Assembly (NCBI GenBank): GCA_024679065.1
Contig: JAGIQG010000004.1
Location: forward strand, 33,232,001 to 33,296,000
Origin: Sphyrna mokarran
Lineage: Eukaryota
Direction: 5' to 3'
Length of the DNA: 64,000 nucleotides
In this document: one piece after another, positions 3,927 to 57,187 of the stretch
Position numbering within the stretch: position 1 is the first letter of the stretch
Layout of the letters: each line of letters begins with the position of its first letter
Notes under the pieces: generated by a model
The model's database searches: none
Seen by the model: only the letters and a program-made list of their open reading frames with translations
What the model was told of the DNA's origin: nothing
Position numbers and translations under genes: made by a program

Positions 3927-4104
3927 CTGCAAAAAATAATAATACAAATACCCAAAGTGTAAACATCATCGATTTAAAAGAACATTCACACTAGTCCGCA
4001 GTTGGAACTTGTAAAGAATTAGACCAGGTGTTCAGGGCTGAATCCATAAATTAGCATTTGGCTGTTTATTTTTTGAAATAGGCTTACATCAACACTGCAT
4101 TGAA

Positions 4105-4374
4105 GTTACTATGAAAATTCCCTAGCCGCCACAGCCCCGCGCTGGTACATTGAGGGAGAATTTAATGTGACTAATATACCTAACCAGCATGTCTTTTGGA
4201 CTGTGGGAGAAACCCAGAGCACCCAGAAACCCACATGGACAAGGGGAGAATGTGCAAACGCCACACAGATAGTGATTCAAGCTGTGAATGGAACCCAGGT
4301 CCCTGGCACTGTTCATAGAACCCTACAGTGCAGAAGGAGGCCATTCAATCCATCAAGTCTGCATCAACTACAAT
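4105..4374 (-). mobile_element. Nested SINE halves left of the PLE palindrome (continue at 8028-8163)
   Basis: SINE body ...ccaggtccctggcactgt resumes as ctgtaaggcagcagtgctgaccactgtgcc at ~8135. The inner SINE tail 4312-4374 resumes at 8041. Confidence 0.7.
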
Positions 4375-4435
4375 TCAGTAAGAATTTAGCAACACCAATT
4401 ATTAATCCAACCGATTTATTTGATAGTAAAATAGC

Positions 4436-4465
4436 GAGCTTTCAACACTCCCGTGTCTTCATCAG
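4436..4465 (-). ncRNA. Mirror-copy hammerhead motif, sense to NETO2 pre-mRNA
   Basis: Exact reverse complement of 7895-7924. Confidence 0.8.
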
Positions 4466-4682
4466 GCAAGTGCAGTGTTCTGGTCTGCAATAGCACACAT
4501 CAGCACAGACAGTCAGAGATTGCTGATTAGAATGCGAATCCTTACATCTAACCTGCTATTCAAGTGTTAAAGTGGCTAACAATGTGTGTGAAGGGGATCC
4601 TGAGCATTGTTAGAGAATTGTGTATTTTCTCCAGACAGCACAGTAAGTGAGGTTTTTTGCTAACCCAGGCAAGTTACGGGGG

Positions 4683-6047
4683 TTACAGATAGTGTGTCAT
4701 GAAGCCAAGATCCCTGTTAAGACCGTCCTCATGTGTGCGGAGCTTGGCTATCAGTCTCTGTCAGCGACTCTGCGCTGTCGTGTATCACGAAAGCCCCCTT
4801 GAAGAACATTTACCCGCAGGTCGGAGGCCGAATGCCCATGACTGCTGAAGTGTTCGCCCACAGGAAGGGAACTGTTTTGCCTGGTGATTGTTGAGCGATG
4901 CTCATTCATCCGCTGTCGTAGTGTCTGCATGGTCTCCCCAATATACCATGCTTCGGGACATCCTTTCTTGCAACGTATTAGGTAGACAACGTTGGCCGAG
5001 TTGCAAGAGTATGTACCGTGCATCTGGTGAATGGTATCCTCACGTTTGATGATGTCGTCCATGTCTATGATCCGGCATGTCTTGCAGAGGTTGCTGTGGC
5101 AGGGTTGTGTGGTATTGTGGTCACTGTTCTCCTGAAGGTTGGGTAGTTTGCTGCGAACAATGATCTGTTTGAGGTTGTGCGGTTGTCTGAAAGCAAGAAG
5201 TGGGGGGGTGGGGATGGCCCTAGCGAGATGTTCATCGTCATCAATGATATGTTGAAGACTCCGGAGAAGATGTCGTAGCTTCTCCGCTCCGGGGAAGTAC
5301 TGGACAACAAAGGGTACTCTGTCCACCGTGTCCCGTGTTCGTCTTCTGAGGAGATCAGTGCGGTTTATCGTTGTGGCACGTTGGAACTGTCGATCGATGA
5401 GTCGAGCGCCATATCCTGTTCTCACGAGTGCATCCTTCAGTGTCTGGAGGTGTCTGTCACGATCCTCCTCATCTGAGCAAATTCTGTGTATACGGAGGGC
5501 TTGTCCATAGGGAATGGCTTCTTTAACGTGTCTAGGGTGGAAGCTGGAGAAGTGGAGCATTGTGAGGTTGTCTGTCGGTTTGCGGTACAGTGAGGTGCTG
5601 AGGTGACCGTCCTTGATGGAGATGCGTGTGTCCAAGAATGCAACTGATTCTGGAGAATAGTCCATGGTGAGTCTGATGGTGGGATGGAACTTGTTGATAT
5701 CATCATACAGTTGTTTCAATGATTGTTCACCATGAGTCCAAAGGAAAAAGATGTCATCAATGTATCTAGTATATAACCTTGGTTGGAGATCTCGTGTGGT
5801 GAAGAAGTCTTGTTCGAACCTGTGCATGAAGATGTTGGCATACTGAGGTGCGAATTTGGTCCCCATGGCTGTTCCGTGTGTCTGGATGAAAAGCTGATTG
5901 TTGAAGGTGAAGACATTGTGGTCCAAGATGAAGCGGATGAGTTGTAAAATTGCATCTGGAAACTGGCAGTTGTTGGCATTGAGTACTGAGGCAGTTGCAG
6001 CAATACCATCGTCGTGGGGGATGTTGGTGTAGAGCGCCGAGACATCC
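4683..6047 (-). pseudogene. Inverted second copy of the PLE RT/GIY-YIG ORF, truncated at DVSALY
   Basis: Same protein from DVSALYTNIP onward with two amino-acid differences (R/Q, M/V); a 1 bp deletion near 4760 ends the ORF at RRVADRD*. Confidence 0.92.
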
Positions 6048-6057
6048 TCATTCTCGT

Positions 6058-7677
6058 TCTCGTGGCTCTCATTCCATGTACTCCCCGCATTGGAGATCTC
6101 TACTGCCTTCCAAAGATACACAAGGCAAACATACCCGGCCGTCCCATCGTATCGGGCAATGGGACCCTCTGTGAGAACCTCTCTGGCTATATCGAGGGCA
6201 TCCTGAAACCCATCGTACAAAGAACCCCCAGCTTTTGTCTTGACACTACGGACTTCCTACAGAAACTCAGCACACATGGAGCAGTGGAAACAGGGACACT
6301 CCTTGTCACAATGGATGTCTCGGCGCTCTACACCAACATCCCCCACGACGATGGTATTGCTGCAACTGCCTCAGTACTCAATGCCAACAACTGCCAGTTT
6401 CCGGATGCAATTTTACAACTCATCCGCTTCATCTTGGACCACAATGTCTTCACCTTCAACAATCAGCTTTTCATCCAGACACACGGAACAGCCATGGGGA
6501 CCAAATTCGCACCTCAGTATGCCAACATCTTCATGCACAGGTTCGAACAAGACTTCTTCACCACACAAGATCTCCAACCAAGGTTATATACTAGATACAT
6601 TGATGACATCTTTTTCCTTTGGACTCATGGTGAACAATCATTGAAACAACTGTATGATGATATCAACAAGTTCCATCCCACCATCAGACTCACCATGGAC
6701 TATTCTCCAGAATCAGTTGCATTCTTGGACACACGCATCTCCATCAAGGACGGTCACCTCAGCACCTCACTGTACCGCAAACCGACAGACAACCTCACAA
6801 TGCTCCACTTCTCCAGCTTCCACCCTAGACACGTTAAAGAAGCCATTCCCTATGGACAAGCCCTCCGTATACACAGAATTTGCTCAGATGAGGAGGATCG
6901 TGACAGACACCTCCAGACACTGAAGGATGCACTCGTGAGAACAGGATATGGCGCTCGACTCATCGATCGACAGTTCCAACGTGCCACAACGATAAACCGC
7001 ACTGATCTCCTCAGAAGACGAACACGGGACACGGTGGACAGAGTACCCTTTGTTGTCCAGTACTTCCCCGGAGCGGAGAAGCTACGACATCTTCTCCGGA
7101 GTCTTCAACATATCATTGATGACGATGAACATCTCGCTAGGGCCATCCCCACCCCCCCACTTCTTGCTTTCAGACAACCGCACAACCTCAAACAGATCAT
7201 TGTTCGCAGCAAACTACCCAACCTTCAGGAGAACAGTGACCACAATACCACACAACCCTGCCACAGCAACCTCTGCAAGACATGCCGGATCATAGACATG
7301 GACGACATCATCAAACGTGAGGATACCATTCACCAGGTGCACGGTACATACTCTTGCAACTCGGCCAACGTTGTCTACCTAATACGTTGCAAGAAAGGAT
7401 GTCCCGAAGCATGGTATATTGGGGAGACCATGCAAACACTACGACAGCGGATGAATGAGCATCGCTCAACAATCACCAGGCAAAACAGTTCCCTTCCTGT
7501 GGGCGAACACTTCAGCAGTCATGGGCATTCGGCCTCCGACCTGCGGGTAAATGTTCTTCAAGGGGGCTTTCGTGATACACGACAGCGCAGAGTCGCTGAA
7601 CAGAGACTGATAGCCAAGCTCCGACACATGAGGACGGTCTTAACAGGGATCTTGGCTTCATGACACACTATCTGTAA
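6058..7677 (+). pseudogene. 5'-truncated PLE ORF: reverse transcriptase plus C-terminal GIY-YIG endonuclease
   Basis: RT motifs LPKIHK, PGRPIV, DVSALYTNIP, GTAMGTKFAPQYANIFM, YTRYIDDIF, FLD. Cys linker PCHSNLCKTC. GIY-YIG NVVYLIRCKKGC...YIGET...RMNEHR...VGEHF. A 1 bp deletion near 7623 shifts the last codons. Confidence 0.92.
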
Positions 7678-7894
7678 CCCCCGTAACTTGCCTGGGTTAG
7701 CAAAAAACCTCACTTACTGTGCTGTCTGGAGAAAATACACAACTCTCTAACAATGCTCAGGATCCCCTTCACACACATTGTTAGCCACTTTAACACTTGA
7801 ATAGCAGGTTAGATGTAAGGATTCGCATTCTAATCAGCAATCTCTGACTGTCTGTGCTGATGTGTGCTATTGCAGACCAGAACACTGCACTTGC

Positions 7895-7924
7895 CTGATG
7901 AAGACACGGGAGTGTTGAAAGCTC
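7895..7924 (+). ncRNA. Minimal hammerhead ribozyme motif in the PLE 3' terminal repeat
   Basis: CUGAUGA-A-[GACAC-GGGA-GUGUU]-GAAA-GC-UC: intact core boxes, 5 bp stem II with GNRA loop, minimal stem III. Such motifs are known from PLE pseudo-LTRs. Confidence 0.8.
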
Positions 7925-9965
7925 GCTATTTTACTATCAAATAAATCGGTTGGATTAATAATTGGTGTTGCTAAATTCTTACTGAGTTCTTACCACTCCA
8001 ATCCAACGCCGGCATCTTTACATCATGTCAACTACAATTCCCATAACCCCAGGCATTTACCCTAGCGCTAGTTCCCCTGACACTATGGGACAATTTATCA
8101 GGGCCAATCCACCTAACTCACACATCTTTGGATCTGTAAGGCAGCAGTGCTGACCACTGTGCCAGTAGTGTGTCATTACAGGCTCTTTGAGCTTGCTGGA
8201 AATTTCACATGAATTCTGCTGAGCTTATAAATTCATCAGACCCAATAATCATTCTATTTCAAAGTAATGGGCCATTATTCATTATTTTCAAATTTACTTC
8301 ATTTGTGGCCCCAAAAGTAACATCAATGTAAACAGATGATCCCTTTGGGGATGTGGAGAAACATGATTATTTTTTATGAAAATATGTCTATAATTATTTT
8401 ATAAACTGAAAAAATCCTGATTAAATGATATGATGATGAAACATCGGAACTCAACAGGAATTCTAAAATCTGCCATAATCTTTAAATCGAGATTTGTAAC
8501 AATTCCACAGTAATGTTTAAGGATCTTTAATGTGAAGCACGTTTTCAATGAAACCCACAAATCCAGATTTAACTTGAGACATACATTGAATGTGTCAGGT
8601 TAGGAGCACGAAGTGAGGGAGGGAAAGAGGGCAATGAAAGGGAATGACAGGCCCTGATGCCAGCGTTTTGTTCTCTTCACATCACAACCACAATCCACAA
8701 TCAAAAGAAAGTTATTTACCCAGGGAATACAAAGAACAAAGAAAATTATAGCTCATGAACAGGCCCTTTGGCTCTCCAAGCCTGCACTGACCATGCTGCC
8801 CAATTGGACTAAAACCCTCTACTCTTCTGGGAATCATAACACTCTATTCCCATCCTATTCATGTATTTTTTCAGACACCGCTTAAAAGTCAATATCATTA
8901 GGATGTAGAACTCATATCAATAAGGACCATTCGAGGTGATTAACACTGATGTATTTAAAGGGAAGTTAGAGAAAAACACGAGGGAGAATGGAATAGATGT
9001 AAAGTCCTTGGCCTCATTTTAACATAACTTAATCACTGTTCAGATTATCTCAGGGAAATAGGTAGCCTGCTCATTTTCATGGGGAAATTTCCTGTGGCGT
9101 GCCAATTTAAAGCATGAATACATCTCCCAAAGTGAAGATTTTGTGGTACTGGAATAGAAATATCCAATGTTCATTCTCTTTGCGTTCCCCCCACATCTTG
9201 TGTCCCTATTCTATCCCATTCGATGCATGCCTTGGGTTAAGATTAACCAGGCCTGTGATTAAGAGAATAAATTATAGGGTCCTTCCCATATTATCTGATG
9301 TTTGTGGGGGAATTCAGAGAAAGGAGAGAGGTATTTTTCGCTATTATTTCTGGAAGCATAACCAAAGTGACCTCCAAGAAGGCTAGACACGGTGGCAGAG
9401 AGGGTCAATACAAGCAGCATTGTCCCCAGGACCTGAGTTCAGTGTTGGAAGGAATTCAATGACTTCACAAGAGCAGCATGCGTGTCATTTTGATTTCTTC
9501 ACCTCTGTGTCTGTGAAACAATTAACAATGCACAAGTTCTCACCTGACTTTTGCCAAACCAGAAGTGATGGAAGATTTAATTATTGCAACATTCTTCACC
9601 CCTCAGCATCACTTTTTACAGTTCATCACTCCAACATATGATTCAGAATACAATCACAAGGACTTGCTGCAAAATCTCTCTTTCTCATTCCAGATGCACT
9701 TACCTCTTTGTTCCCTTTGTCCACCGCATTCACAATACACAATAAGGAATTCAAAATAAACATCTTTACCCAGAGAGGAGTCAGGATGTGGAACTTGCAT
9801 CCATAAAGGCCAATCAAGGTGATTAGCACTGATGAATTTAAGGGATAAACACATGAAACAGAAGGATGTATTGATAGAATTAGACGAATAAGGATGGGAG
9901 AAGGTTCATGTAGAATATAAACACTGGCATGGGCCTGTTATGCCAAAAGAGCTGTTTTTCTAATA

Positions 9966-10096
9966 AAATCAAAATACTGCTGATGCTGGAGATCTGAAAT
10001 AAAAACAAACTGCTGCATAAACTCAACAGGTCTGCAGTATCTGTGGAGAGAGAAACAGAATTAACATTTCGAGTCCAATATGATTCTTCTTCAGAA
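9966..10096 (-). mobile_element. PLE 3' terminal fragment (second family) with hammerhead remnant
   Basis: Minus strand reads CTGAAGA-AGAATCATATTGGACTC-GAAA-TGTT, followed by tctctctccacagatactgcagacctgttgag. Confidence 0.65.
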
Positions 10097-10379
10097 TAAA
10101 GCATAGTTTTTAAGTGGGTTTAATTTAGTCATAGAGTCATAGAATCATAGAACCCTTACAGAGCAGAGCAGAGCAGAGCTTGCACCAACACAATTCCATC
10201 CAGGCCCTATTCCCCATAACCCACATATTTACCCTGCTAACGCTCTTGACATTAAGGGACAACTAACCATGGCCAATCCACCTAACCTGCACATCTTTGG
10301 AAAGTAGGAGGAAACTGGAATACAGACACAAACAGTTACCCGAGGCTAGAATTAAACCCATGTCTCTGCCGTTATGATA

Positions 10380-10515
10380 GTAATAAGTCTTATCATACCA
10401 AGTTAAAGTCTAACAGGTTTATTTGGCACCAAATAAACCTGTTGGACTTTAACCTGATATCGAAAGACTTCTTACTGTATTTACGCCAGTCCAATGCCAG
10501 CATCTCTATATCATG
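10380..10515. mobile_element. Miniature PLE-terminus palindrome with 3' tail
   Basis: Arms gtaataagtct...tttgg / ccaaa...gacttcttac, centre near 10427, tail ending ...tcatg. Degenerate TSD ctgccgttatga (10366-10377) / ctgccgctgtga (10517-10528); interrupts a SINE. Confidence 0.75.
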
Positions 10516-13500
10516 CCTGCCGCTGTGAGGCAGCAGTGCTAACCACTGTGCCTCCATGCTGTCCAAAAATGATTCTGTGTGAAGAAGAGTAAAATCTACA
10601 GTTAAATTCATGCTGTACAAAAGTGGTTGTATGTGTGGGGTTTTGTTCAGTTCTTACTGTGCTACTATTATGCTTAGGGTGGGTTGCGGTGTGAACAGTA
10701 AATACAGGCTGGCAGTAGCAGCTGTTGCTTAGCAACTGAGGACTTCTTAATGTAGGAAGGCTTTTTGTTCTTAGTTTAATTGGAAGCCAGGGCAGTTGGA
10801 GATATGACAGTGGAAAGTGAACATCTCTCAACTTTGCCAAGAGAAGCTGAACAGGTCAAGGGAGCTAGAAAGAGGCAGACTTTTCAAAGAATCAGATACA
10901 GGCCAGATAACCAGGGAATTGGGATATAACAAATATCTTAAAAAGGCTGAAAAGAGACCAAGGTATTGTTCAGGAGAATTCAAGGGAAAAGTAAACAAAG
11001 TGTTCTGAGTTAAAGAAAAAGTTGTGCCGAGATTCTCCCAAAACAATCCTAAGTATTGAATTCGCATGAAAACTGGAGTAAATTACACTTTTTTCTCAGG
11101 GGAGTTTCAAAAACAATCTCCCACATTCTGTGCACCGCTGAGTGCTTCAGCATGAATCAGGCTGAAATTCAATGGGTGGGGACTATCCCTTTGGAAGAGG
11201 CTGGCAGCCTAGTGATGAGTGGGTCACTGTGCATGCGTTGATCTAACAGCACCAATATTGGCATGTGCACAATGGCCCTGCACTGCTGCCTCTCAATTTC
11301 TGGCCAGATTGATCATTGGCCACCCCACAATCCTTACAATGCTGCCCTACCAAGCCCCCATGGCCTGATTGCTACCCCCCCATGCATACCTGGGGCCTGC
11401 CTCAATCTGCCCCCCACAGCCCCAATCTCCCGCCGCCCTGACAGTGCAGGATCACACATAGTGCTAGTCCCTCCTGCAGTGCCAGCCACCCTAGCAGGCT
11501 GCCACCCGTCACCACCCCAATGGCCCACCCCGATTGCTGGCTTTCCTTTCATCACCACCAAACCCAACAGCAGAGTGGCACTCAGACCCCCATTCCCACC
11601 GATCGCCCTCAGAGACCACACGTTATTGGGTTATTCCCCCTGTTAGGCCCCACTCCCTTGGTACTGCCCCGTGCCCTGGATGGGCAGTGCCAAGATACCC
11701 CTGGGCATTGGCACTTTGCCTCTTGGGCAGTATGATGGGGCAGAGGCTAGCAATGCCATGGTAACAACGCCCAGGGGACACCCCAGCACCTGGCCCTCTG
11801 GAGAACCAAATGAGCCCCCTTCACTCCAGCAGGGTCAGGCTCCCAGCTTCCTGAAAGGGTGGAGTAACTGTAAACCCCACTGTAGTGAAATTCTCCTGGC
11901 AGGTGGGTGGGGAAGAGGCTAGTAGGCATGGAGACTTCAGTCTTGGGCCTGCTAATTCTATTTAAATTGTATTTAAATGGTAATTTGCATTATTAATACG
12001 GCTCCCCACTGATTTCCAACACAGGTGTGACACTGCTGGATATCCGACGCTGGGAGACGCTATCTAGGCAAAATGCCCAGCATGGATCCTGTGCATCGGG
12101 TGCCACTTGAATCGCTGGCCTCCTGTGCTAAAAAAATTAGCGCAGCAGAACGGGAATACTTGCCTTCCCCGCCCAGTTTTAAAGTGGGAAAGTAGACTTC
12201 AGAGATAAATCAAAAGTTTAATTCCATTTCCATAAAGTCTGGGAATTAAAGCAATTGTGAACAGTTTGTCCAACAGTCAGGAGCAGGAGTTGAGATTGTT
12301 GTTAAAAGTGGAGTGGAAAAGTCATTTGGGAAATTTGGACTGGATTTCTGAAGGGAAATCCTCTGATGGAAAGCATTGTTGTGAAAGAAGATTTTAAAGT
12401 ATATTTTTTGGGAATGAAGTTTAAAAACTTCCCTGTGACTATCATCTGGGAGGATTCTGAAAAGAAATCCACATACATTCATTTGGGATTCAGAGTGGCC
12501 AATATACTTGATCATAGCCATCTTGTGTGTTTAAAGGGATGTTGTGATACTAAGACTGTTGTAGCTTAAGATAATCTTTATAAGTCACATTAATCTCAAA
12601 ATCTGTGTATATTTGTTAAGACAAGGGGGAGCAATGGAGTACTGTATCATCATCCAATTTTTTGTGTTTAATAAATGTTTCCTTTCTTATTAAAACTAAT
12701 TAGCAGTCCCGTGTCTCTGTTCCTCCGCATTTTAAAAAAAAAGTAAAAGTTATGAGGTCAAATTCTCCAATCTCACCAGGAGTTGGGATGCTCCAGCCTT
12801 GCTGCAGTGTATGGAGATTTGGCTGAGCACCATATTTTCCATTCTGGCTGGCAGCAGTGGCAGGACATGAATAGCTGAGAATTCTGGCTATGGTTTCATT
12901 CTGAGATTCATTTATAACTGGGATTGTAACACAAAGAAGAGTCACTTTGGATTCAAAGTTTGCCTCTCTCTTCACAGATGCTATCAGTCCTGGCACTTTG
13001 TAAATCCTCTGTAATGCTAAGTAACAGCATTTCCCCTTGCATCTTCATTCCTTATAAACACACTGCATTCAAAATGGATCAGAAAAGCTTGCAACAAATA
13101 CATGATTGAGTGCTTCAAGTATCATCCACAGTGGGAATCAGAACCAGAGAGGTTGATTATAATCTTAATAACCTCAATAGAAAATCTAGTGGGAGAATAC
13201 ACTCGGGGAATAGACTAGACCTGACTTTGCTTCAGCCTAAATAGCTGGAAGGAAAATGTGTCAAATTCTTTAAAAGGCCTGGCATACATACATCCTGCTT
13301 GATTTTTCCCCTTTACCTTGCCATGGCAATACTTATTACACAAGCTATAAAGATTAAAAATTTATTCCGATGCCTTGGTACTACTGTGTCAGTGACAATT
13401 CTTTGTAAATTTTACTATCAGATGTGACAACTGAAATGTAATGGTGAAATGAAATCGAGGTCACAATATGCAATCAGAATATTTTACATTTTTAGCTTAA

Positions 13501-20019: not shown

Positions 20020-20480
20020 TTCCTCCAGACTCACTGAAAAACAGAAGAAAGGGGGCTTTAAGATGCAGGAGAAAGGTCAAAACCTAAAGATGCCAAACTC
20101 AACATTGAGTCCTGAGGGCTGCAATGTGCCTGATTGGAAGATGAGATGCTGCTCTTGCAGATTGCACCAGGCTTCACTGGAACATTACAGCAGGCCAAGA
20201 ACAAATGTGGGTCTTTTCTCCTCCTGTTTAATAATGTTCTATACATGTATTGCCTCGATGCGAAACACCTTTCCCTCTTTCACACTGTTTGTTCTTAAAG
20301 TTGCTGCTTTTTATTGCAGTTTTTTTTTGCTCTAATGCATACTCCCTCCTTTCCATTCTAATGAAGGGTTTGTAACTCAAAATGTTAACTCTGTTTCTCA
20401 TCTATTAGATGCTGGCAGACCTGCTGAGTTTTTTTAGTGTCCACTGTTCTGATTCAGATTCCAGCATCTATAGTACTTTG
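20020..20480. mobile_element. Old PLE remnant with inverted parts
   Basis: Minus strand ~20100-20200 translates ...EQHLIFQSGTLQPSGLNVE (GIY-YIG C-terminus), followed by a + strand 3' terminus with decayed hammerhead (ctaatgaagggtttgtaactcaaaatgtt). Confidence 0.6.
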
Positions 20481-21129
20481 ATACTGTTGATGCTGAGCTT
20501 TGCTCCTACCTCCCATATTACACGGGCAGCAAGATCAGGAGGCATAGAAAGATAAGTGAAAACTTTCATTTTAGCTTCCTAGATACTTTCCACCTGGACA
20601 CCTTTTGGCTGCAGTTTTTGGAGAACAGCTTGAAAAGCTGGATATCAATGGCCATTCCTGCTGCTGTAAAACTCTCAGTTTTGCAGAAATGTCTACATTT
20701 TTAGGCCATTTCAAGGTGCAATCTCCTGCTAGGTGGCAGATCTGTAATGGATGCATGATAATGACCTGAACTAGCAAATTCAAAGATGTTCAGGTAATTG
20801 TAAGTGAGCTCACTTTGAAAATACTACATCTTTCTGGTGCTCAGATGAACAGAGGGCAAGAAAATCAGCCCTACCTCATTTATGAAAAGTCCAGCATTCA
20901 AAACAGAAATAAATGCTGTATCTCCAGTATTAGATACAACTGGCAAAATGTTGATATCGCTGAGCAATCTTGTATATAAACAAGACACCTTTATTAGGCT
21001 GAATCATGTCTTTAAAACAAAATAAATTGTTTATTTCAACAATTTGTTTAATCTTTCAATGAAATTAAATGATTGTTCAAAATTTGTATGAGCCAGTAAT
21101 AATTCCATGTGCATGTTTATATAAGGAAA

Positions 21130-21411
21130 TACTGATACAGAAATAATTCTCTACGAACGTTAGTGTGAGGCAGTATTGATATAACAATAATTCTGAATAT
21201 ATGTTTGAGTGAGGCAGCATTAATACAGCTATAATTCTGAACGTATGTCTGAGTGAGACATTATTGATCCAGCAATAGTTCTGAATGTATGTTTGAGTGA
21301 GGCAGCATTGATACAGCAATAATCTGAATATATATTTGAATGAGGCAGTATTGATACAGCAATAATTCTGAATATATATTTGAGTGAGGCAGCATTGATA
21401 CAGCAATAATT
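21130..21411. repeat. 44 bp minisatellite, about 6.4 copies
   Basis: Unit ctgaatatatrtttgagtgaggcagcattgatacagcaataatt starting at 21149, 21193, 21237, 21281, 21324, 21368. Confidence 0.92.
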
Positions 21412-23012
21412 CCTTACATGGAATGAATAAACATGTTTCCTGGGCATTTAGGACAGATCATGCAAAAGGCACCTGACAACATTCAAAAGCATCATCTAGA
21501 CAAACTGATCAGGAGGACAGTCCTGGCAATTTGTAGTGAAAATGATCAAGCACTGGATCCAGTCTTTCACATCAATTTACTTTTCACTGTTGTGCATCTT
21601 AGTGTAAATTAGTTAATTTTAACAGCTTTATTTCAAAGAGATTTCAATCTATTTCCTGTGTATTATAAGCTCTCAACATGAACTGCTAGTACAAAATTAT
21701 CAGGCTCCTTCTTCCTCAAGTGGGCAGTATCGTACTTATCATTAGCTGTGTTAATGAAAAAACAACTGCGATTAGTTGACTCCGGTCAATTTGTGCCTGT
21801 GATAACTGCTGTGATTGGAACTACCTTTCAATATTTAAAAGCTGGATGTATATGTGTTCTAACATTATTGGAAGGATATTGTTTATCTGTTGCTTCAGTG
21901 CTAATAGGGCCATGCTGTTATCTGATTTTTTTATAATCTTGTTAGGCATCAGAATATTGCCAGCCAAAGCACTTTAATCTGCAACTAGGTTGACAATGTA
22001 TCCTTGAAACTGACACACGCAGTCCAGGGTTCCCTAATTATTTCCAGTGATCTCAAATGCAAAAGAATGGAGTTTTTACTAGATGAAGACATGATCAAGA
22101 TCCAGTTTCTCTTTTGATGCACTGCCAAAACCCCACTTTTTCTTCAACTCTGGTCGCTTGAATAAGAACAGAAAATGCTGGAAAAATCCAGCAGGTCTGG
22201 CAGCATATGTAGAGAGTGAAAGAGAGTTAACAGCTGGAACTTTCTCGTATGATCTTCTGATCTGCTGATTGCAACACCCTGCCACAGATTCCCTGAAGGT
22301 TGGGGGTAAAATCAGTGGGAAACTCTCTTAACCATGGAGGGACTGGAAGCCAATGACAGGCCACCTTCGCCACAGTGAACAACATCCATCATTTTGAGGT
22401 CATGTGACCCTTCTTCAGAGCCCTTAGACCTTCTATTTGTCATTCGTAGCTCTGACAAAGAAAGGAACAGTCCCATAGCAGGACAGACTTCCAAGCGTCC
22501 AACTGTTGTGGTTAACCAAAGATGATCGAGTACAGGGGAAAACTGATTATCTTCACTGTTATCCCAGACTTAAAATCAATTTAACTAGCAGTCCCACCAC
22601 TAGCAACCATCATGGGGAGGAGGTGGAATCAAATAGCAAGAAACAAACAACAATGGAATATTATCCAACACATTTGAAACACCAGCCTCAATAAACCAAA
22701 AAATAATATCCATCTTCAATGTAGTGACTTATCTTCATTTCATAACAAGGAACTGGACCTCTCAGATTTTATTAGGGAATGAAATGAGCTGTTTGGTATT
22801 AAATCAGATTTCCATGCACTCGCTGTGGAAATGTCAAAACTAGTTAAGATCTGTTAGTCTCTGTAAACCACAGCTTAATGCGAACTTTGACTGAGATAAA
22901 CGTATTGATTTAACCCATAAATACAGCTGTCGGGGAGAAATGGCCTTTGTCAAGTCCGATGAAGTAAAGGACATTGTTTTCTCACAAATGCTTTTACAGA
23001 TCACACTTTTAC

Positions 23013-23126
23013 CTTTACAATGATTTTCATCCCATGGGTACACACAGTTCTGGACTCCATTACAGACCAAAGAATTGTTGATGCACATGTCGCTGTGACA
23101 AAAGAATGTGTTGTCCTGGCAGGGAG
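23013..23126 (-). CDS. NETO2: NETO2 exon encoding the LDL-receptor class A domain (114 bp)
   Basis: gcAG|CT CCC TGC CAG GAC... gives (P)[37 protein letters not shown]; donor G|GTaaaa; phases 1/1. Confidence 0.95.
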
Positions 23127-24520: not shown

Positions 24521-24733
24521 AGTGTTGTGCAGAAGCCATTAAAATGAACTAACTTCTAAAATTTAAAATGAGAGTCCTAGTTGCAACGCATCCATTATCA
24601 CAAACTATCTAAGATTCCTTTCTGCTGCTGTCTAATGGGGATAGGGCCTGGATGGAATTGTGGTTGGTGCAGACTTGATGGGTCGAAAGGCATCCTTCTG
24701 TACTGTAGGGATTCTATGATTCTGCAAAGTATG

Positions 24734-24979
24734 GTAAGAAGTCTCACAACATCAGATTAAAGTCCAACAGATTTATTTGGTAGCAAATGCCACTAGCTTG
24801 CGGAGCACTGCTCCTTCAACAGGTGAGTGGGGGTCAGAACTCCCCACTCACCTGACGAAGGAGCAGCACTCCAAAAGCTGAGGGTGTTTGCTACCAAATA
24901 AACCTGTTGGACTTTAACCTGGTGTTGTGAGACTTCTTACTGTGTTTACCCCAATCCAACCTGGCATCCTCACATCATG
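24734..24979. mobile_element. Miniature PLE-terminus palindrome with decayed hammerheads in both arms
   Basis: About 100 bp arms centred near 24835; ctgacgaaggagcagcactccaaaagct at 24852; tail ...ccaatccaacctggcatcctcacatcatg homologous to 7986-8027. Confidence 0.8.
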
Positions 24980-34468: not shown

Positions 34469-34717
34469 CTGGTACAAAAGAGTATTTCGCTCGAAATCCA
34501 AAGCCTTCTAACTCCTCATCTGAAGTAAACTTTATCCATAAGAATCTTCCAGATGATTTAATGAGCGATGGACTATTTTGGCCACAAAAGCGGTTTATCA
34601 CACGGGAGAATCCAAATGGTCCATCTCTGACTTCCAAATGATCAAATCTACAATCCCATGAAGGTTCAATGCTGTAAGGTTCGTCAAAAGTGAGTTCAAT
34701 TCGCTGGCGGGGAGCAG
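34469..34717 (-). CDS. NETO2: NETO2 exon, main part of CUB1 (249 bp)
   Basis: gcAG|(A)[12 protein letters not shown]...[14 protein letters not shown]...[10 protein letters not shown]|GTaact; phases 1/1. Confidence 0.95.
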
Positions 34718-34810
34718 CTGCAAATACAGCAAAATGATAACAAGTTCCTGCAGGTCAAGGCGTACATCCAGGTTCAAAGTGTATTCAGTTACCAAAGAAA
34801 TGTACTCATT

Positions 34811-34937
34811 GGGTGGGATTTTATGGCCTCGTTTGTCCCGAAAGTGTAAAATCTCACCCAAGGTCAGTCGACCTTTCCATGGTCCACCCCTTGCCTGCTC
34901 CAATTCCTGTGGCAGGTGGGCCGGTAAGATTCTGGCC
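34811..34937. mobile_element. Short MITE (Harbinger-like) with 3 bp TSD
   Basis: gggtgggattttat...gtaagattctggcc flanked by att/att; close relative at 43709-43830. Confidence 0.7.
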
Positions 34938-35152
34938 ATTATCTCTGAGAACATTTCAAGTAGGCTGGTTACAACTGCGTTGTTTTATGACAGGCTTCTA
35001 GCTGAGTAATTTTGACATATTATAAAACATCATCATTCCAGCAACTGCTGTAGATGATCCATAATAATAAACATGGACAGATCTTTGTTGAGAATTGATA
35101 TGGGCTCCAACTAGCACCATAGAGTTAGACGCAAATGAATAAATCACATTAC

Positions 35153-35293
35153 CTTCCAGTATGTAGATACATTCTCTATTAGGGGGGTAGACATTCGGGT
35201 AATTTGGTGAAGCAAAATATCCACCGTTTTCATTCCGAACCCAAACTCCACATTGCTTTCCTGATTTGTGATGTGGTATGGCATTCTGTAACT
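35153..35293 (-). CDS. NETO2: NETO2 exon, start of CUB1 (141 bp)
   Basis: acAG|(E)[46 protein letters not shown]|GTaatg. Confidence 0.94.
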
Positions 35294-43139: not shown

Positions 43140-44340
43140 AGAATCACAGAATACAGGAGGAGGCCATTCAATCAATCACATATCTGCAAGAACAACTCAG
43201 CTTGTCCCACTTCCCTACCTTTTCCTCATGATCTCTTCAGACAATTCTCTTGTGAAAACCAAGATTGAATCTGCTTCCACCACACTGTCAGGCAGTGAAT
43301 TTTAACTCCTGACTACTTGCCGTGTAAAATATGTAATTTTTTTTATCTTGTCTTTGGTCCTTTTGCCACTTGGCTTAAATCAGCATCCTCTGATTCATGA
43401 TCCTTCTGCATCATTCATTACAGTTTCTCCATCTCCACTCTGTTCGAATGTCTCATGATTTTGAACATCTCTATCAATCTCCTCTCAACCTCTTCTCCAA
43501 GGGGAACAGCCCCAGCTTCACTAATCTATTTATGCAACTGAATTTCCTTATCTCTGGAACAATTCTCATAAATCTTTTCTGCAACTCCCTAATGCCTTTA
43601 CACCCTCCTGAAAGTGCAGTATCCAGAATGGGATGCAATACTCCAATTGATACCAATCCAATGTTTTAAAATGGTTTTTCAGATGTTCTTTGTTTTTGTT
43701 CTCTATATGTGGGATTTTATGGCCTCATTCATTCTGAAACTGTAAAATCTCGCCCAAGGTCAATGGACCATGGTCCAACTCCCCTACCCGTTCCGATTCC
43801 TGTGGCAGGTGGGACGGTAAAATTCTGGCCTATGCCTCTATTTATAAAGCCTAACATCCTACATGCTTTTTAAATCTGCTTTCTCAAGCTACTCAACCAC
43901 TTACAATGATTTATGTACATATACCCCAGGTCTCTCTGCTCCTGCAGCCCCTTTAGAATTCCATTCTTTATTTTATGTTTCCTTTACTAGTTCTTCCTAT
44001 CAAAATATATCACTTCACTTTTATTTGCATTAAACTTCATCTGAGGAGTATCAGAGGATTTGATGAGGTACTAGGGAGTGTTAATAAGGGTAATGCAGTT
44101 GATCTGGTGTTTATGGATCCAAAAGGCATTTGATAAACTGCCACACAAAATGTTCCTGTGCTGCGCTTTGTTCATTGTTCTTATACTGAAAGCACTGGAT
44201 AAAGTGGACATGGAGAAGATGTTTCCATTAGTAGGAGAAACTAAGATCTGAGAACACAACCTCAAAGTAAAGGGACGACTTTTAGAACCAAGATGAGGAA
44301 GAATCCCTTTAGCCAGAAGGTGGTGAATCTGTGGAATTTA
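43140..44340. mobile_element. CR1 fragments (minus ~43140-44040, plus ~44045-44340)
   Basis: QKRFMRIVPE...RLVKLGLFPLEKRLRGD on minus; DxxKAFDK-like and ORF2-end remnants on plus. Confidence 0.7.
43709..43830. mobile_element. Short MITE (Harbinger-like) inserted into a CR1 fragment
   Basis: Same family as 34811-34937; flanked by tat/tat; the host CR1 sequence resumes across it. Confidence 0.7.
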
Positions 44341-45272
44341 TTTTGATGTGGCTTCAGTTATAAATGGGAATAACTATATAAGCTATGTACTTTAATAATT
44401 TCTTATAACTGAAGTCACATCAAAATAAAAACCATTGCTATTCACCTTAAGTTCATCATCTGTTCACTTAAGTACCCTACTGTAGTCATCTATCCTCTAC
44501 CTTTCTGCCACATTTGTTGAACCATTTAAATTTATGGAAGATCAAAACAGGGAATGGCAGCAATTAAAGATCCATGACTAATCTACAAGTGAGGCTGAAT
44601 CATTTAGTTCATAGGTAATATAATTTGAAGAATTGGGAATGTTCCAGTGTCTTACAAAAGCATTAGATCTGTCGCTTTGATGTAGAGAGTCTGTGGAATA
44701 TACACAAGAGTAGAAGACAAATAGCTATAAATGAAAAGAGGATGCCTGCCTTAATAAATCAGATGACTGAATTGACCACAGTACATAGAACAGAGGTGAG
44801 ACTTGCTGTAAGCTCATAGGCAGTATTATTCCCTGTTACCAAATGACTACAAAGAATGGTGTATCCTCTGGAATACAAATTCTATCTTAAGAAGCTTGTC
44901 CTTCTGTGGAAAACAATGCAGCAAAATCACCAGGTTCAATTGCACACCGACCAGTACTTCAAATAAGAAAGAGATCATCAAGAAGCTGACAAATCAAACA
45001 TCTCGTGAATTTGAAGGTGCAACTTCTAAAATGTGATCTATTGCAAGTGAATAATTGTGGGATGATCCTAAACATTTGCAAGGACATTGTCTGCTCAAAT
45101 CCAAATTGCTCAGAGCGCGAAAGTGTTTGTTTGGAAAGAAATGTCAATATAGCAGTGTTGGTCTGATTGGATCAAAAGGTTGATTACATAGCACTGTGTT
45201 CTGGAATAGTTATGTACTGTCTAATTAGAAAATGTCACCCACAGCTGCTTTTAAATATAACCACATTTTTGC

Positions 45273-45488: not shown

Positions 45489-46751
45489 TTTTGCTAATGC
45501 TGAAGTCAATGTCTAATTTGTGTGTATTTCTAAGAAGGTGAAACTCTCAGTAGCAAAGAATCTACTAACTTGGAGCTTTGTAATATTGGGTATATGAATA
45601 TTCAGAAATGAGTATGTCTTATACTTTATAAAGCCCAAAGGAGCAGGTGTTGGGGATCCTTTAAACTTGCTCAGAATATGTGATTAGCAAAGCTTCCTTT
45701 ATAAATTATTCAGATCTGAGGTGCAAGTACTCAAGAATGATACTACTTGAACTGATTGAGATGTGGTGTTATAGTCCCTAAGACATTGCTAAACAATAAT
45801 GAACACAGGCATTTATCTACACTTAAAATCAGTTCACAAGGAGTCATTCAGTCCATCTAGTCCAGGCTAGCTCCCTGTGAAGCAATTCACTTAATTCCAT
45901 TCCTCCATTCTATCCCTGTAGTCCTGCAAGCTTATTTCCCTCAAGTGCCTTTCCAGTTTCATAGTCTCTGCTTGTACTGCCCTTCTAAACAAATTCAAGT
46001 GTCATGCCCATGTCATATTCGTAATGTTAAACATTCACTGTGTTCATAAAGAAGCTTCTGGAACTGCCTTTGTTTATTTAAAAATATGGACATTGATGAA
46101 CTATTAAGATGACAGCCAAGGGGGTCAGGTGACCATTGCAACTTCAACCCCGACCATCAAGCTTCTGGAAAGTTCTGAATTGAATCATACTGGGTAGGGG
46201 GTCTACCTCTTTCATTGTCATGCCTGGACTATACATCTTTGTAAAATTCATGCCTGACATTTTTGAAGCACAGTGTCCATAAACTAGACTTTACATCTCC
46301 AAGTTTACAATGCAACAAAGTAAAATTGAGGAGACTATTTAGATACAAATTAAGTGTGAAAGACCTTTGCGAGGATTACACTTAAAAGACTCCAGTACCT
46401 GCAGAGTGTGTGTATTCAGAAGCACAGTGTGGTTTTCCATGCTGATATGGTCTTCTCCATTGGCCAAGTACATGAGAAGTTTCGGGAACTCTACACTTTA
46501 CTTTTGTAGATCTCACTACAGCATTCAATATCACAAGCAAGATAAGACTCAATAAGATTTGAGGGGAAATTTACAGTCCACCAAAGCTTTGCTCCTACTC
46601 CTTTGGGCTTTATAAAGTATAAGACATACTCATTTCTGAATATTCATATACCCAATATTACAAAGCTCCAGTTAGTAGATTCTTTGCTACTGAGAGTTTC
46701 ACCTTCTTAGAAATGCACAGAAATTAGACATTGACTTCAGCATTAGCAAAA
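45489..46751. repeat. 158-159 bp inverted repeat pair separated by ~946 bp
   Basis: 45489-45647 is the reverse complement of 46594-46751, with about 3 substitutions and 1 indel by eye. Confidence 0.9.
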
Positions 46752-48713: not shown

Positions 48714-49984
48714 CTGGAAAAGAAAATGAGGTTTCAGTGTCTGGCTGCTGAGGTAACATTGCTTCAGGCATCACATAAAACTGGGTAGCATTCGACAGAA
48801 ATTCGGAATTTCAGAATTTACAACGTTTTGTCTATGAAAATCCAAGATAAATATATACACATACCTACATGTAGACAACATGGTAAGATATTCCCAAATA
48901 ACTGACCTTAATCGAATGGGAAATCAAACAGACAAGAATTGTTTTCTAGTTACACGGTAAAGTCCATCTTCATATCCCGTGGATAAGCGGTTTCCCGGGG
49001 ATTTTATTTAAAGGAGTTCGCTCCTCAAGAGTTCAGGTGGTCGGAGACATTTGCTGCCTTCTCTCCGCAATATTGATTTCCTGGTGAGAAAGGCACTAAC
49101 TGCGGGGTACTGGCATTAACATTTCCCTACACTTCATTGCACGCACCATGCACTTTCGGGGAAGCTATTAATTTTAAACAGACAGCGAACGAGTCAAGTT
49201 AAACATAGCAAGTCCATCTACCGATCGAAAGGTAGTTCCAGCAGAGAGTTCCTGCTAGGGGTCTCACATTGTTTTAAGGTTTGGGCTGAGTCAGGGAGAA
49301 GCAGCACCTCGACCCCGAGCCCACCCTGCAACGTGATGCATTTCGCAATCAAATGAATGCCCGTACCCCGCAACTTTCTCTATGAAAAGATTGGGATTAT
49401 CGGGGAAAACTAAATGCGGTACATCATGGATTTTCAAACTAATGTCAAAACAAATCTCCCCAACAATAAGAATAAAGGCCCAAACATTCTTGGTGCAGCT
49501 GGGTATTAGTTTTTGCAGTTTACAATATCTAACATATAATGTAGCTAAAGACACCTCAGGAATCCCAAATCTTTGCAATTTGACGGTCCATTTTAATCTG
49601 AACCTGTATCTCAAATCTTATCTTAAAGCATTGCGACTTTTCCAAAAACTATATGTGATATTTTAATGTTAAAATTTGGTGTCTAGGATTTTATAAGATT
49701 CTTTATATTTCCTTACTCTTACATGAACGGGGTCAATGGTCCATCGGGGTCTTCTGACATCACAAACCCTCAGAAGTTCTGGTAACTTACAATTATCTTA
49801 TTTCACAAGGGATTAGGGCTCTGAATCCACTCATCTCAATTATATCAAAAGAACATTTCCTGGTGTTTGAGGAGTTGTGTTCGGACCAATCTCTGCAAGG
49901 GTTGCACTGGAGCTTGCAACTGAAAATACTTTCTGTGCAGATGCATCATTACCGCATATTGAGTGACCACCACTAGAATGACCC

Positions 49985-50175
49985 AAAAGAGAAAATGCTG
50001 GAAAATCTCAGCAGGTTTGGCAGCATCTGTAAGGAGAGACAACTTTGACAAAGGGTCATCTGGACTCGAAACATCAGCTCTTCTCTCTCCTTACAGATGC
50101 TGCCAGGCCTGATGAGATTTTCCAGCATTTTCGCTTCTGGTTTCAGAGTCCAGCATCCGCAGTAATTTGCTTTTA
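49985..50175. mobile_element. Miniature palindrome of a second PLE family
   Basis: Arms ~49991-50039 and ~50084-50132; decayed hammerhead (ttgacaaagggtcatctggactcgaaacatc) in the loop; ~40 nt 3' tail. Related ends at ~9966-10096(-), ~20356-20480(+), ~22165-22235(-), ~39055-39140(+), ~62245-62362(+). Confidence 0.7.
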
Positions 50176-52306
50176 GCCAGAAATAATACCATATGGAGAG
50201 ATTATTGAAAGATAAAGTTAAAATTATCAATGTAAGTTAGCCTTGAGAGATGGTGGAACAAGAATGAATTGTTAGACGGACACAATTTTGCAACTAAGTT
50301 GGAAGGTTATGAGGAAGGCAGGATAATGTACAATGAATACACTCCCCTGAAACTCTGTGTAGTGGAAACTCTTTGGTTTTTCTTACACTCACTCATGTGA
50401 TGTGCATTAAAAGTTTTCGCCCATTCCGTTGGATAGACAGTTCAGAGTCTGCTCTGGTACAAATTTCTCAGCCGTGCGGGCGGGGAGATCGCGAACAAAC
50501 TGGGAAACAGGGAAAACCCGCTCTCTGTATATACATATTCCGATATTATTGTGGAAACCAGAGCCAATGTACAAACCCAGCCTTGCGCTTCAAGACCAGA
50601 GATCGACTGCCTTGTGCGAGCGAATCCCAAATTCTCATTGTTGTTTCTGACTGAAACCAGGACGCGGAATTTTATGAAATATAATTCGTTGAGGGTGGGG
50701 TGGGATTCAGAATCCCGTTTTTTAAAGATCAGCTCGATTTTTCACGTTTTGATATAAACCTCCTTCATAATTTCGGATCAATCTAAGTGGTCATTTGAAA
50801 CAAGCCTATTTTTATTGTGTTTGTACCCCCAATTTGAGATGAATCAGCACGTTTGGCTTGTGAAGCAGGAATGGCATTTCCAATCAGTAGTTCATGCTGT
50901 GAAATTCTGAAGTGCTTTTAGTTTGCATGTTTTAATTTTTTTAAATTTGTATGAAAATACACGGGCTTTATACAACTTCCACGCAAGCGGATTAGTAATA
51001 TTTCCGTAGTTTCTGTTGGGCCATGTACTCAATTCAACATGTTAATGGAACTGGTAAATGGGATTGTAGCAATGTGATGGTCTGGGTGAATAACTCCAAC
51101 CTCTTCAGCTTTTCCGACATTTTGTTGTCAAAGATTGCCAGTTAAGAATAAAAATCATAGTGTGATTTTCAGCAATATTCGCTCAGAAGCTCGATTCATC
51201 TCATCCAATTTAATGACTTTGCCGAAGATTTGGCCCCGCTAGTGTTTGAATGGGTTCAGAGACTGGCCTCTCAATATTGCCTAAAGCGGAACCTTTAAGC
51301 CTGTGTAAAAATAGAAATAGGGAGAGAAATCTGTAGGTGGGGAGTGGGAGGAGGTGGGATTGAATGTTGAGAAATGTTCTTCAATGCTGCTCGGACAACA
51401 TGAACTCAACACCACGTGGAGCTGTTCTTTCAGCACTTTTCGTTACCAAGACTGGGACACTTGCCGACACACCAGCGCCGTCCCCCCCGTAGCCGGAGAC
51501 GAGGAAACAGAACATTTCATTGCTCTTTCCTCGCCGGTAGGATTAATTTCACTCTGCTGCCTTTTCGTGCGGATTGATTGCTGAGGCTGTAGGTTCGGAG
51601 CTCCGGCAGATTGGAGCCACTGGAACTGAACCTGCTCACTGAGTGGGGCAGCTACATTTTTCACTTTCTCTGTACTGGAGACTGTTCTAACCCAGTGAAC
51701 CTGATATGTTTGTGCAAACTTTTTTGTGGCTTAAAATTGATGTGGGAACAACAAAGAAAAAGTTACAGCGTGAAACAAGAAATATATCAGTTAGTTCTAA
51801 ATACCTGCTCATTTTAAAATGGAAACAAGCAAAAACAAAGGAATTTTTTAAAAAATCAGTTCGCGCGTTAAGAATATGTTAGCCCCGTAAAATAAACCCT
51901 GGCAAAGTAATTTTTGCCACAAAGCCAAAAGCATTTTAAAGTAGTAAGAAAGGCAAGCATGTTTAAGAACAATTGTTTTTGGACAAAAAGATTCGCTATT
52001 TTACAAGGCACAGCAGCTTCCTGTAGATGGCGACGTCATTTTATCTTTCATTACAACTCACCTTTGAACATGAAGAAACACCGTCTTTCTAGCACCATTC
52101 TTTCGGTTAGGAAGGTGTCTGCTTTCTCCCCTCCTCGAGCACCTCTTCCGATGTATTGAGAGCACTCAGAGTCTGCAGTGCTGACGGCGCACGGATAGAT
52201 ACTGAGCACTTCCCAGAGCTTGTCAAGTGAAACAAAGAATCCACGCTGCTCCAACCAAACCACGGAGCCTTGCTTGCATTCGGCAGCTATTCTCCCCGAT
52301 ACCTAC

Positions 52307-55012: not shown

Positions 55013-55273
55013 ACATAGCTTTAAATTAAGGGGTGGTAGTTATAGGACGGATGTCAGAGGTAGGTTCTTTACCCAGAGGGTGGTAAGGGTATGGAATGCC
55101 CTGCCTGCTGCAGTTGTAGATGCGCCAAGTTTGGTGGCGTTTAAGAGGTTAGTAGATAAGTTTATGGAAGATAAGGGAATGGTTTAGGTTAGAGGGTCAT
55201 TGCTTTTTCTTAATTGGTCGGCGCAACATCGAAGGCCGAAGGGCCTGTTCTGCGCTGTAATGTTCTATGTTCT
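55013..55273 (+). mobile_element. CR1 3' fragment, near-identical to 60435-60695
   Basis: Same sequence and tail with few differences. Confidence 0.9.
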
Positions 55274-56352: not shown

Positions 56353-57076
56353 CTGAAATTAAAGTAAAAAGAAAGTCATTAGAAATAAACATACCTGTAT
56401 TATTGAGTGAACAGCATGACAGGAACAGAACTTCTTGGCCCAAATTACTCTTTTTAAAAAATCTTACTTTGAACTTTCTCTGTAAATGTTTTAACCAGGT
56501 GGAAATTGTGTTGTTAACCAAATATCATTTAGTTATAAATAACAATAATATCCTAATCATGGGAAAGGAAGTGGATTTCACAGCTATCTTATATAGTCTT
56601 TACCATCCATATTAAGTTAAACATAGACCTACATTTACATCATTTCTTTTACATAATACCTCCAATTTTCCAATGACTAGCAAAGACAGATGTCTGCATT
56701 TACACTCTCCTTCTCTGTCCTGTACGCAAGGTTTTACTGGCAGGCTGACAATGTGAGAGCCCAGTGCAGTATTTTCGCTGAGGCCATGGCAGGAATGCAA
56801 ATGGATTCACTGAAAAGACTCATCAGTGGCTTGTGGTCTGAACGTGGTGAATGAACAACCTAAAGGTACTGATGAAACTGCTTCACAGCATCGATGATAC
56901 TTGGACCTTCTTCGTCTAACTGCTAATATCCCTTCTCAGTTGGTGTCAGCTTCTGTGATGCAAAATAAATGGCTTTTACTGACCCGTCCTCCATCAGATG
57001 AGACGATACTGCCCCAACACTGGATGGTGAGGCATGCAATGATAGAATGATTTCTCTGTCTTGATCAAAGTAAGTC

Positions 57077-57187
57077 AACACAGTAAGAAGTCTCACAATA
57101 CCAGGTTAAAGTCCAACAGGTATATCTGGTAGCAAATAAACCTGTTGGACTTTAACCTGGTGTTGTGAGACTTCTTACTGTGTTTAC
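57077..57187. mobile_element. Miniature PLE-terminus palindrome (tail lost)
   Basis: aacacagtaagaagtctcacaataccaggttaaagtccaacagg ... cctgttggactttaacctggtgttgtgagacttcttactgtgtt. Confidence 0.75.

Follow-up and report, generated by a model that had tools for sequence, protein, structure and literature searches.

The 64-kb stretch of Sphyrna mokarran DNA analysed here (hereafter, the window) contains two dead copies of a Penelope element (PLE), filed as Neptune-type, that are joined head to head. We lean towards an origin in a single event in which both target strands were cut and each of them primed one cDNA.

The two arms of the unit, at 4377-6047 and 6313-7983, are inverted relative to each other and are 1,671 bp long each, as found by a repeat finder and by local alignment (6047->4377 against 6313->7983). 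Paired coordinates sum to 12360 except over the 24 bp between the two indels. The arms differ by five substitutions, all of them transitions (5957/6403, 5793/6567, 5023/7337, 4925/7435 and 4617/7743), and by two one-base indels, at 7599 and 4737; a chance origin of the match is excluded (BLAST E=0). The match also extends for two further bases into the left flanking repeat. With the 265-bp spacer between the arms (6048-6312), the complete unit spans 4377-8027 (3,651 bp). Its left arm is a tail-less, 5'-truncated copy on the minus strand that runs from the first catalytic aspartate of the reverse transcriptase (RT; motif DVS) through the thumb, linker, GIY-YIG domain and 3' region (tblastn aa 80-528). 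The other copy reads on the plus strand and consists of RT sequence unique to it (6065-6312, the remaining ~248 bp of the spacer, by alignment and homologs), the part that pairs with the left arm (6313-7985), and a 42-nt tail that is present on this side only (7986-8027, by alignment and end-point comparison). Compared with full-length relatives of ~880 aa, this tailed copy is without roughly the first 350 aa. A preliminary description of the locus had reported two near-identical inverted arms with about five substitutions and two indels, a one-sided tail of 42 nt, and a 265-bp spacer of extra RT sequence. Alignment bears out the arms, the tail and the length of the spacer, but up to 17 nt of the spacer appear to be non-native filler.

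Comparison with homologs revealed that each arm has a private one-base deletion: the left (inverted) arm near 4761, in AEQ codons, and the right (tailed) arm at 7623/7624, in RTHEDG codons. The C-terminal end of the endonuclease is thus frameshifted, and neither arm holds an intact endonuclease. Both copies are dead, since each has lost its 5' part and has a separate frameshift close to the C-terminus, and we rejected an active element for this reason. A DNA transposon with long terminal inverted repeats, or a foldback element, would have symmetric terminal repeats that reach the TSD and a transposase or non-coding interior. This reading was likewise rejected, because the 42-nt tail makes the two ends unequal and RT and GIY-YIG domains are encoded in the arms.

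A plus-strand frame at 6077-7663 (P0001) matches Pfam RVT_1 (E 2.8e-10) and the GIY-YIG family PF01541 (E 2.2e-4; its 21.9 bits fall slightly short of the cut-off, 22.6), with the endonuclease core at 7370-7490 on the plus strand (aa 432-471 of P0001, by the PF01541 match and by motif). Two marks of EN+ PLEs are thus found here: one ORF with RT followed by a C-terminal GIY-YIG domain, and an inverted 5'-truncated copy together with a one-sided tail (42 nt) and a target site duplication (TSD). Between RT and endonuclease lies a CX4CxxC zinc-finger-like linker (CHSNLCKTC, aa 395-403 of P0001, 7259-7285, plus strand), a motif shared by 88 of those listed homologs in which YIGxT occurs (91 out of a set of 120). 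In the available text of PMC8557442, a CX2-5CxxC linker in this position marks Neptune and Nematis; the presence of the motif does not fit Penelope/Poseidon, in which the zinc-finger linker is absent. Because a survey of sampled vertebrates lists solely Neptune and Poseidon (bioRxiv 10.64898/2026.07.22.740005, in its available part), we preferred Neptune over Nematis. We thus file the element as a Neptune-type PLE, in agreement with the preliminary description, by linker motif and vertebrate survey. Among the best of 2,913 homologs, the closest relatives are shark proteins with 84-88% identity, which in itself points to a shark host. Full-length homologs (~880 aa) have an N-terminal DKG, and both copies here are truncated downstream of DKG and of the direct pLTR.

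In EN+ PLEs, a minimal hammerhead would be expected in the pLTR. A pattern search predicted a motif resembling one (a core, an unpaired A, a stem II of 5 bp and GAAA) at 7894-7928 on the plus strand, with a mirror copy that begins at 4466 on the minus strand. These two are the sole pattern matches in the window, and their layout agrees with the description given in the accessible portion of PMC4209133. An Rfam search of 4200-11000 gave no hammerhead match; its one hit was a chance match of a microRNA model to a short palindrome. When the 3' region was folded, the z-scores were 0.59, 0.15, -1.40 and -0.95, none of them significant.

The unit is flanked by an exact direct repeat of 13 bp (4364-4376 and 8028-8040, plus strand), and a search of both strands found this 13-mer at these two positions and nowhere else in the 64 kb. 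About 3,600 position pairs were searched, for which ~5e-5 chance matches are expected. The last two bases of the left copy also continue the end of the element, so the length of the repeat is 11-13 bp. Flank alignments revealed that the insertion splits an older interspersed host repeat (4313-8137, plus strand; its halves are 4313-4376 and 8041-8137). Within the window, the motif is single in all four paralogous host repeats that align across it, each flank being aligned separately; a fifth paralog covers the right flank only and is outside this count. Furthermore, the two 13-mer copies are identical here even at bases unlike those of the paralogs, which indicates that this locus was the template for the right copy. 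The single motif in the paralogs makes the 13-bp repeat very likely a TSD around the whole unit, as had been proposed at 11-13 bp. About 16 bp that follow the motif in three of the four paralogs are absent beside the right TSD, and the fourth paralog has a 200-bp insert at this position. The absent piece sits between two ATTC repeats, and an earlier slippage deletion by way of these repeats would be the simplest account of the loss.

Two other palindromes in the window have the same ends. A sister family, 76% identical to the long unit at the 3' end, is represented by three short palindromes. Two of these (10379-10515 and 24733-24979) have their tail-less and tailed ends at the long unit's positions, and in the third (57074-57187) the full tail is absent. 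The two matching insertions are older and 140-250 bp long, and their flanking repeats have decayed to 10/14 and 8/12 matches. Recurrence of the same two end positions in two of three older palindromes indicates that both ends are fixed sites of the element. A second short family has one palindrome in the window, at 49983 (49983-50185). An exact 11-mer search found no inverted partner for four other copies of this family (one isolated seed in one of the four), which suggests that one-sided copies occur too. In metagenomes, a scan picked up distant relatives at 61 loci, all of them on short contigs. At one of them (L032), an inverted arm of 65 nt is separated by 2.3 kb from its counterpart, and a 7-bp repeat is a candidate flanking duplication. 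A comparable long coding palindrome was not found in the 61 loci; as such short contigs would probably break at one, this absence carries no information. Loci L010-L012 (59-nt arms) were rejected as a clean example, the apparent flanking repeat being an internal palindrome of the element. Arm length varies widely, and the unit at 4377-8027 is near the long end of those seen.

Because one TSD surrounds the unit and both of its ends are at the family's fixed end-points, placement by a single insertion event is well supported, and the one integration of the preliminary description is upheld. It is improbable that the unit arose in two steps (i.e., insertion of a single copy, then a second 5' insertion or a repair-driven inverted duplication, possibly gene-converted). 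PLE enzymes are able to cut their own sequence, according to the accessible part of PMC11167929, and two steps could accommodate the seven differences between the arms and the ~16 bp of host repeat absent beside the right TSD. However, an internal TSD is absent, and the left end coincides to the base with the canonical end-point of tail-less copies, a position that a random duplication would have no reason to pick. The arms also share no stop codons and retain CpG (observed/expected 0.64 in the element vs 0.25 in window positions 8100-64000), which argues against an old converted pair.

We consider it very improbable that the palindrome is an assembly or library artefact, produced by chimeric reads that fold back or by wrong joining of a repeat. 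Of the two indels, one shortens a homopolymer, which is the kind of error made by long-read consensus. However, the flanks rejoin one host repeat around the 13-bp duplication, the ends coincide with the biological end-points of older copies, and the differences between the arms include five transitions out of five substitutions, two of them at CpG, with derived states in both arms. One of 24 sequencing runs contained more than half of the sampled words (share 0.90); the window itself may derive from this run, and the junctions are outside the scope of that count. The smaller shares of the other runs (0.06-0.32) were left out of account, as they could stem from the flanks or from the element family. 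Judged from the assembled sequence, the unit is very probably real.

Read inward from the flanks, both arms show cDNA polarity, which is expected if the 3' overhang on each side of a staggered cut served as a primer. In the two-strand account, nicks staggered by 11-13 bp, as the TSD suggests, would leave a 3' overhang on each side. The bottom-strand end would prime RT at an outer start site to make the tailed copy (~1.96 kb), and the top-strand end, perhaps helped by 2 nt of pairing, would prime at an inner site 42 nt further in to make the tail-less 1.67-kb copy. Both cDNAs would end early within RT and would then be joined end to end with no more than 17 nt of locally re-copied filler. We infer every one of these enzymatic steps, whereas the anatomy, the single motif in the paralogs and the common end-points are observed. 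A purified PLE of anole cleaves and extends both target strands with no strand difference, starts RT at two internal sites that bracket and define the tail, and is a dimer by prediction, according to the available text of PMC11167929. The available text of PMC8557442 reports tails of insertion units at either end.

The central junction bears on how the two copies were joined. Immediately ahead of the point at which the window reads ILVLVALIP, homologs read xRALIP, which suggests that native sequence resumes at ~6058-6065 and that the filler is up to 17 nt long (6048-6064, no strand assigned). The stretch 6068-6074 recurs in this region as a 7-nt copy, and a tandem repeat of 7 nt is also present; matches this short weakly suggest a filler derived from local re-copying. 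By our reading of the alignment, the inverted match that could be used for snap-back at the junction is ~4 nt.

The two start sites seen in vitro would directly account for the fixed inner end-point, and the untidy junction suits the joining of two ends; we favour two-strand priming for these two reasons. It is also consistent with the lack of a clean snap-back match at the junction and with the private derived changes in each arm. The preliminary description had likewise inferred two cDNAs on opposite strands. That claim is plausible and in line with what a related PLE does in vitro (PMC11167929, in part), but those data are from the Poseidon clade and not from Neptune, and the same DNA would be produced by fold-back, which is possible though on the unlikely side. 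Here, a cDNA primed at the tail end would stall near 6065, snap back at 6313 and copy itself, and the hairpin would then be resolved at a fixed site 42 nt from the end. Consistent with fold-back, the spacer is on the tailed (longer) arm in all three informative cases (4377-8027, 49983-50185 and L032), which are too few to decide. Arm lengths are also concordant in five window insertions (r 0.99, 1/120 permutations), a correlation we do not accept as decisive because the insertions were chosen by hand among those recognised as palindromes, without the asymmetric L032. Furthermore, the hinge of two short copies is a quasi-palindrome native to the element, an arrangement read as self-priming in the available part of PMC3846280, and resolution of the tail by the endonuclease is proposed in that of PMC8557442. 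Against fold-back, the ~4-nt inverted match is accompanied by filler, the second start site explains the inner end-point directly, and the private deletion of the tailed arm would have to postdate insertion.

A further step, that one dimeric enzyme copied the arms from two RNA molecules and that some of the seven differences are source-copy variants, is doubtful. At 5793/6567 the left arm encodes Arg. Of the 23 close homologs that cover this site, 22 have Gln and one has Arg, namely the Mustelus protein that is closest by identity. This residue may be a hint of two templates; a CpG flip explains it equally well.

The arms have diverged by 0.30% (95% Poisson 0.10-0.70%), and two of the five substitutions are at CpG sites (P about 0.05). 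The element frame is stop-free over 528 codons, which, together with the retained CpG, suggests that the source element was recently active, in relative terms. At a shark mutation rate of 7e-10 per base per generation (95% CI 1.4-14.1e-10; PMC10587355, in its available part), the insertion would be about 2 million shark generations old (range 0.3-25 million) if the arms began identical and have been unconverted. The unit had been called very young, which is apt in relative terms only. The same source reports a diversity of 0.002 for the shark it studied, similar to the arm divergence, and an empty allele could therefore either still segregate in the species or have been lost.

The layout itself is already known for PLEs. 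Units often have an inverted 5'-truncated copy at the 5' end and a 30-40-bp tail that is often one-sided (PMC8557442, available text), and such a unit is described for Pen2a_Av of Adineta vaga, with a 9-bp TSD and a 31-bp tail, in a paper that names head-to-head as the most frequent arrangement (PMC3846280, available text). Like the canonical EN+ PLE unit and Pen2a_Av, the unit here has an inverted 5'-truncated copy, head-to-head orientation, a one-sided tail and a single TSD. Unlike them, its inverted copy is 1.67 kb (vs 181 bp), the direct pLTR and full-length ORF of the canonical unit are absent, and its tail of 42 nt is slightly longer than 30-40. In transformed Drosophila melanogaster, rearranged Penelope copies have long inverted repeats inside the body, as here, although these belong to the Penelope/Poseidon clade and to a fly; there the inverted repeats are a source of siRNAs, which match the inverted regions (PMC3681739, available text). 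The preliminary description took the long inverted arm as unusual in kind, a view that is not supported, given the norm in PMC8557442 and the long body inverted repeats in PMC3681739. In PAc, the Poseidon of Anolis carolinensis, two RT starts that bracket the tail and extension of both strands would give the geometry seen here; however, PAc is not Neptune, and the accessible text of PMC11167929 describes parts of the reaction in vitro without full integration or inverted products. The shark RT/GIY-YIG proteins P0002-P0005 (Heptranchias, Scyliorhinus and Mustelus) are 84-88% identical over 84-98% of the query and have the linker and endonuclease motifs found here, and they are known at the protein level, with annotation as uncharacterized proteins. 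In LINE-1 twin priming, both target strands prime in one insertion and a non-overlapping 5' segment is inverted. The unit here resembles this in that both target strands would prime, but differs in that each arm begins from the 3' end, so that one sequence is present twice. No shark-specific or twin-priming description on point was found in the literature searched, which was largely without subscription papers and older papers on Penelope structure, and the available text of PMC8969392 and PMC12910113 holds nothing specific to this layout. The unit is a clean but ordinary example in which arm length alone stands out.

A minus-strand exon at 34480-34730 has NETO2 as its best match (E 1.9e-44), an exon of LDL-receptor type is located around 23026-23121, and a splice acceptor is found at 3927. 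Together, these suggest that a NETO2-like gene likely carries the insertion in its last intron, with the next exon ~440 nt away on the downstream side. The pre-mRNA of this gene would be predicted to contain a near-perfect RNA hairpin of 1.67 kb, which could be edited or diced. As a dead copy with a layout already described for PLEs, this single locus has little weight, and its worth is as material. The origin of the head-to-head arrangement of PLEs is unsettled between self-priming (PMC3846280, in part) and two-strand cutting and extension (PMC11167929, in part), and arms as long as these offer sufficient sites for examining whether a single template gave rise to the pair. If the arms were copied from two RNA templates, long-armed shark palindromes would be a genomic read-out that settles two-strand priming versus fold-back for PLEs. 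Finally, if the differences between the arms reflect age, the locus shows that a shark genome is able to retain a palindrome of this length around a spacer of 265 bp.

Three short palindromic insertions in the window (10379-10515, 24733-24979 and 57074-57187) belong to a sister Neptune-like family. Two of them (10379-10515 and 24733-24979) have the same end-points as the long unit, the head-to-head pair of 5'-truncated Neptune-type Penelope-like (PLE) copies at 4377-8027. Furthermore, we found that one native quasi-palindrome serves as the hinge in two of the three.

A second short repeat family is represented by five copies, one of which (49983-50185) is palindromic: a 38-nt spacer separates its 60-nt arms, and on one side only it extends for a further ~35 nt. 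No inverted partner was seen for the remaining copies (9964-10054, 20383-20480, 22159-22232 and 62275-62362). Elsewhere in the window, a 159-bp inverted repeat with 97% identity (45489-45647 and 46594-46751) encloses ~950 bp of non-coding sequence and lacks a long ORF or an obvious TSD, and a decayed, AT-rich palindrome of ~125 bp lies at 44322-44446, its arms being 72% identical. Among distant metagenome loci, L032 (1057-3523) holds a PLE-like unit that has short arms and a candidate TSD of 7 bp, L049 (377-4169) a 1-kb inverted repeat at 84% identity, and L056 (1427-2227) a decayed 800-bp palindrome.

The window also contains a tandem array with a period of ~44 bp (21104-21409) and a 261-bp direct repeat whose copies (55013-55273 and 60435-60695) are 98% identical. 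The second copy forms the end of an open frame that resembles the C-terminus of a CR1-type LINE; the two copies are thus probably young LINE 3' ends.

Within the long unit, each arm carries a single private one-base deletion (4737-4761 and 7599-7624). These lie 24 bp apart in arm coordinates, a closeness that may reflect chance or an error in the consensus. Immediately past the right TSD, at 8040/8041, ~16 bp present in three paralogs of the split host repeat are absent between ATTC repeats. Minus-strand exons of a NETO2-like gene encode a CUB domain (34480-35210) and an LDL-receptor class A domain (23026-23121), and a likely last exon has its acceptor at 3927. The long unit was therefore likely inserted into the last intron of this gene.
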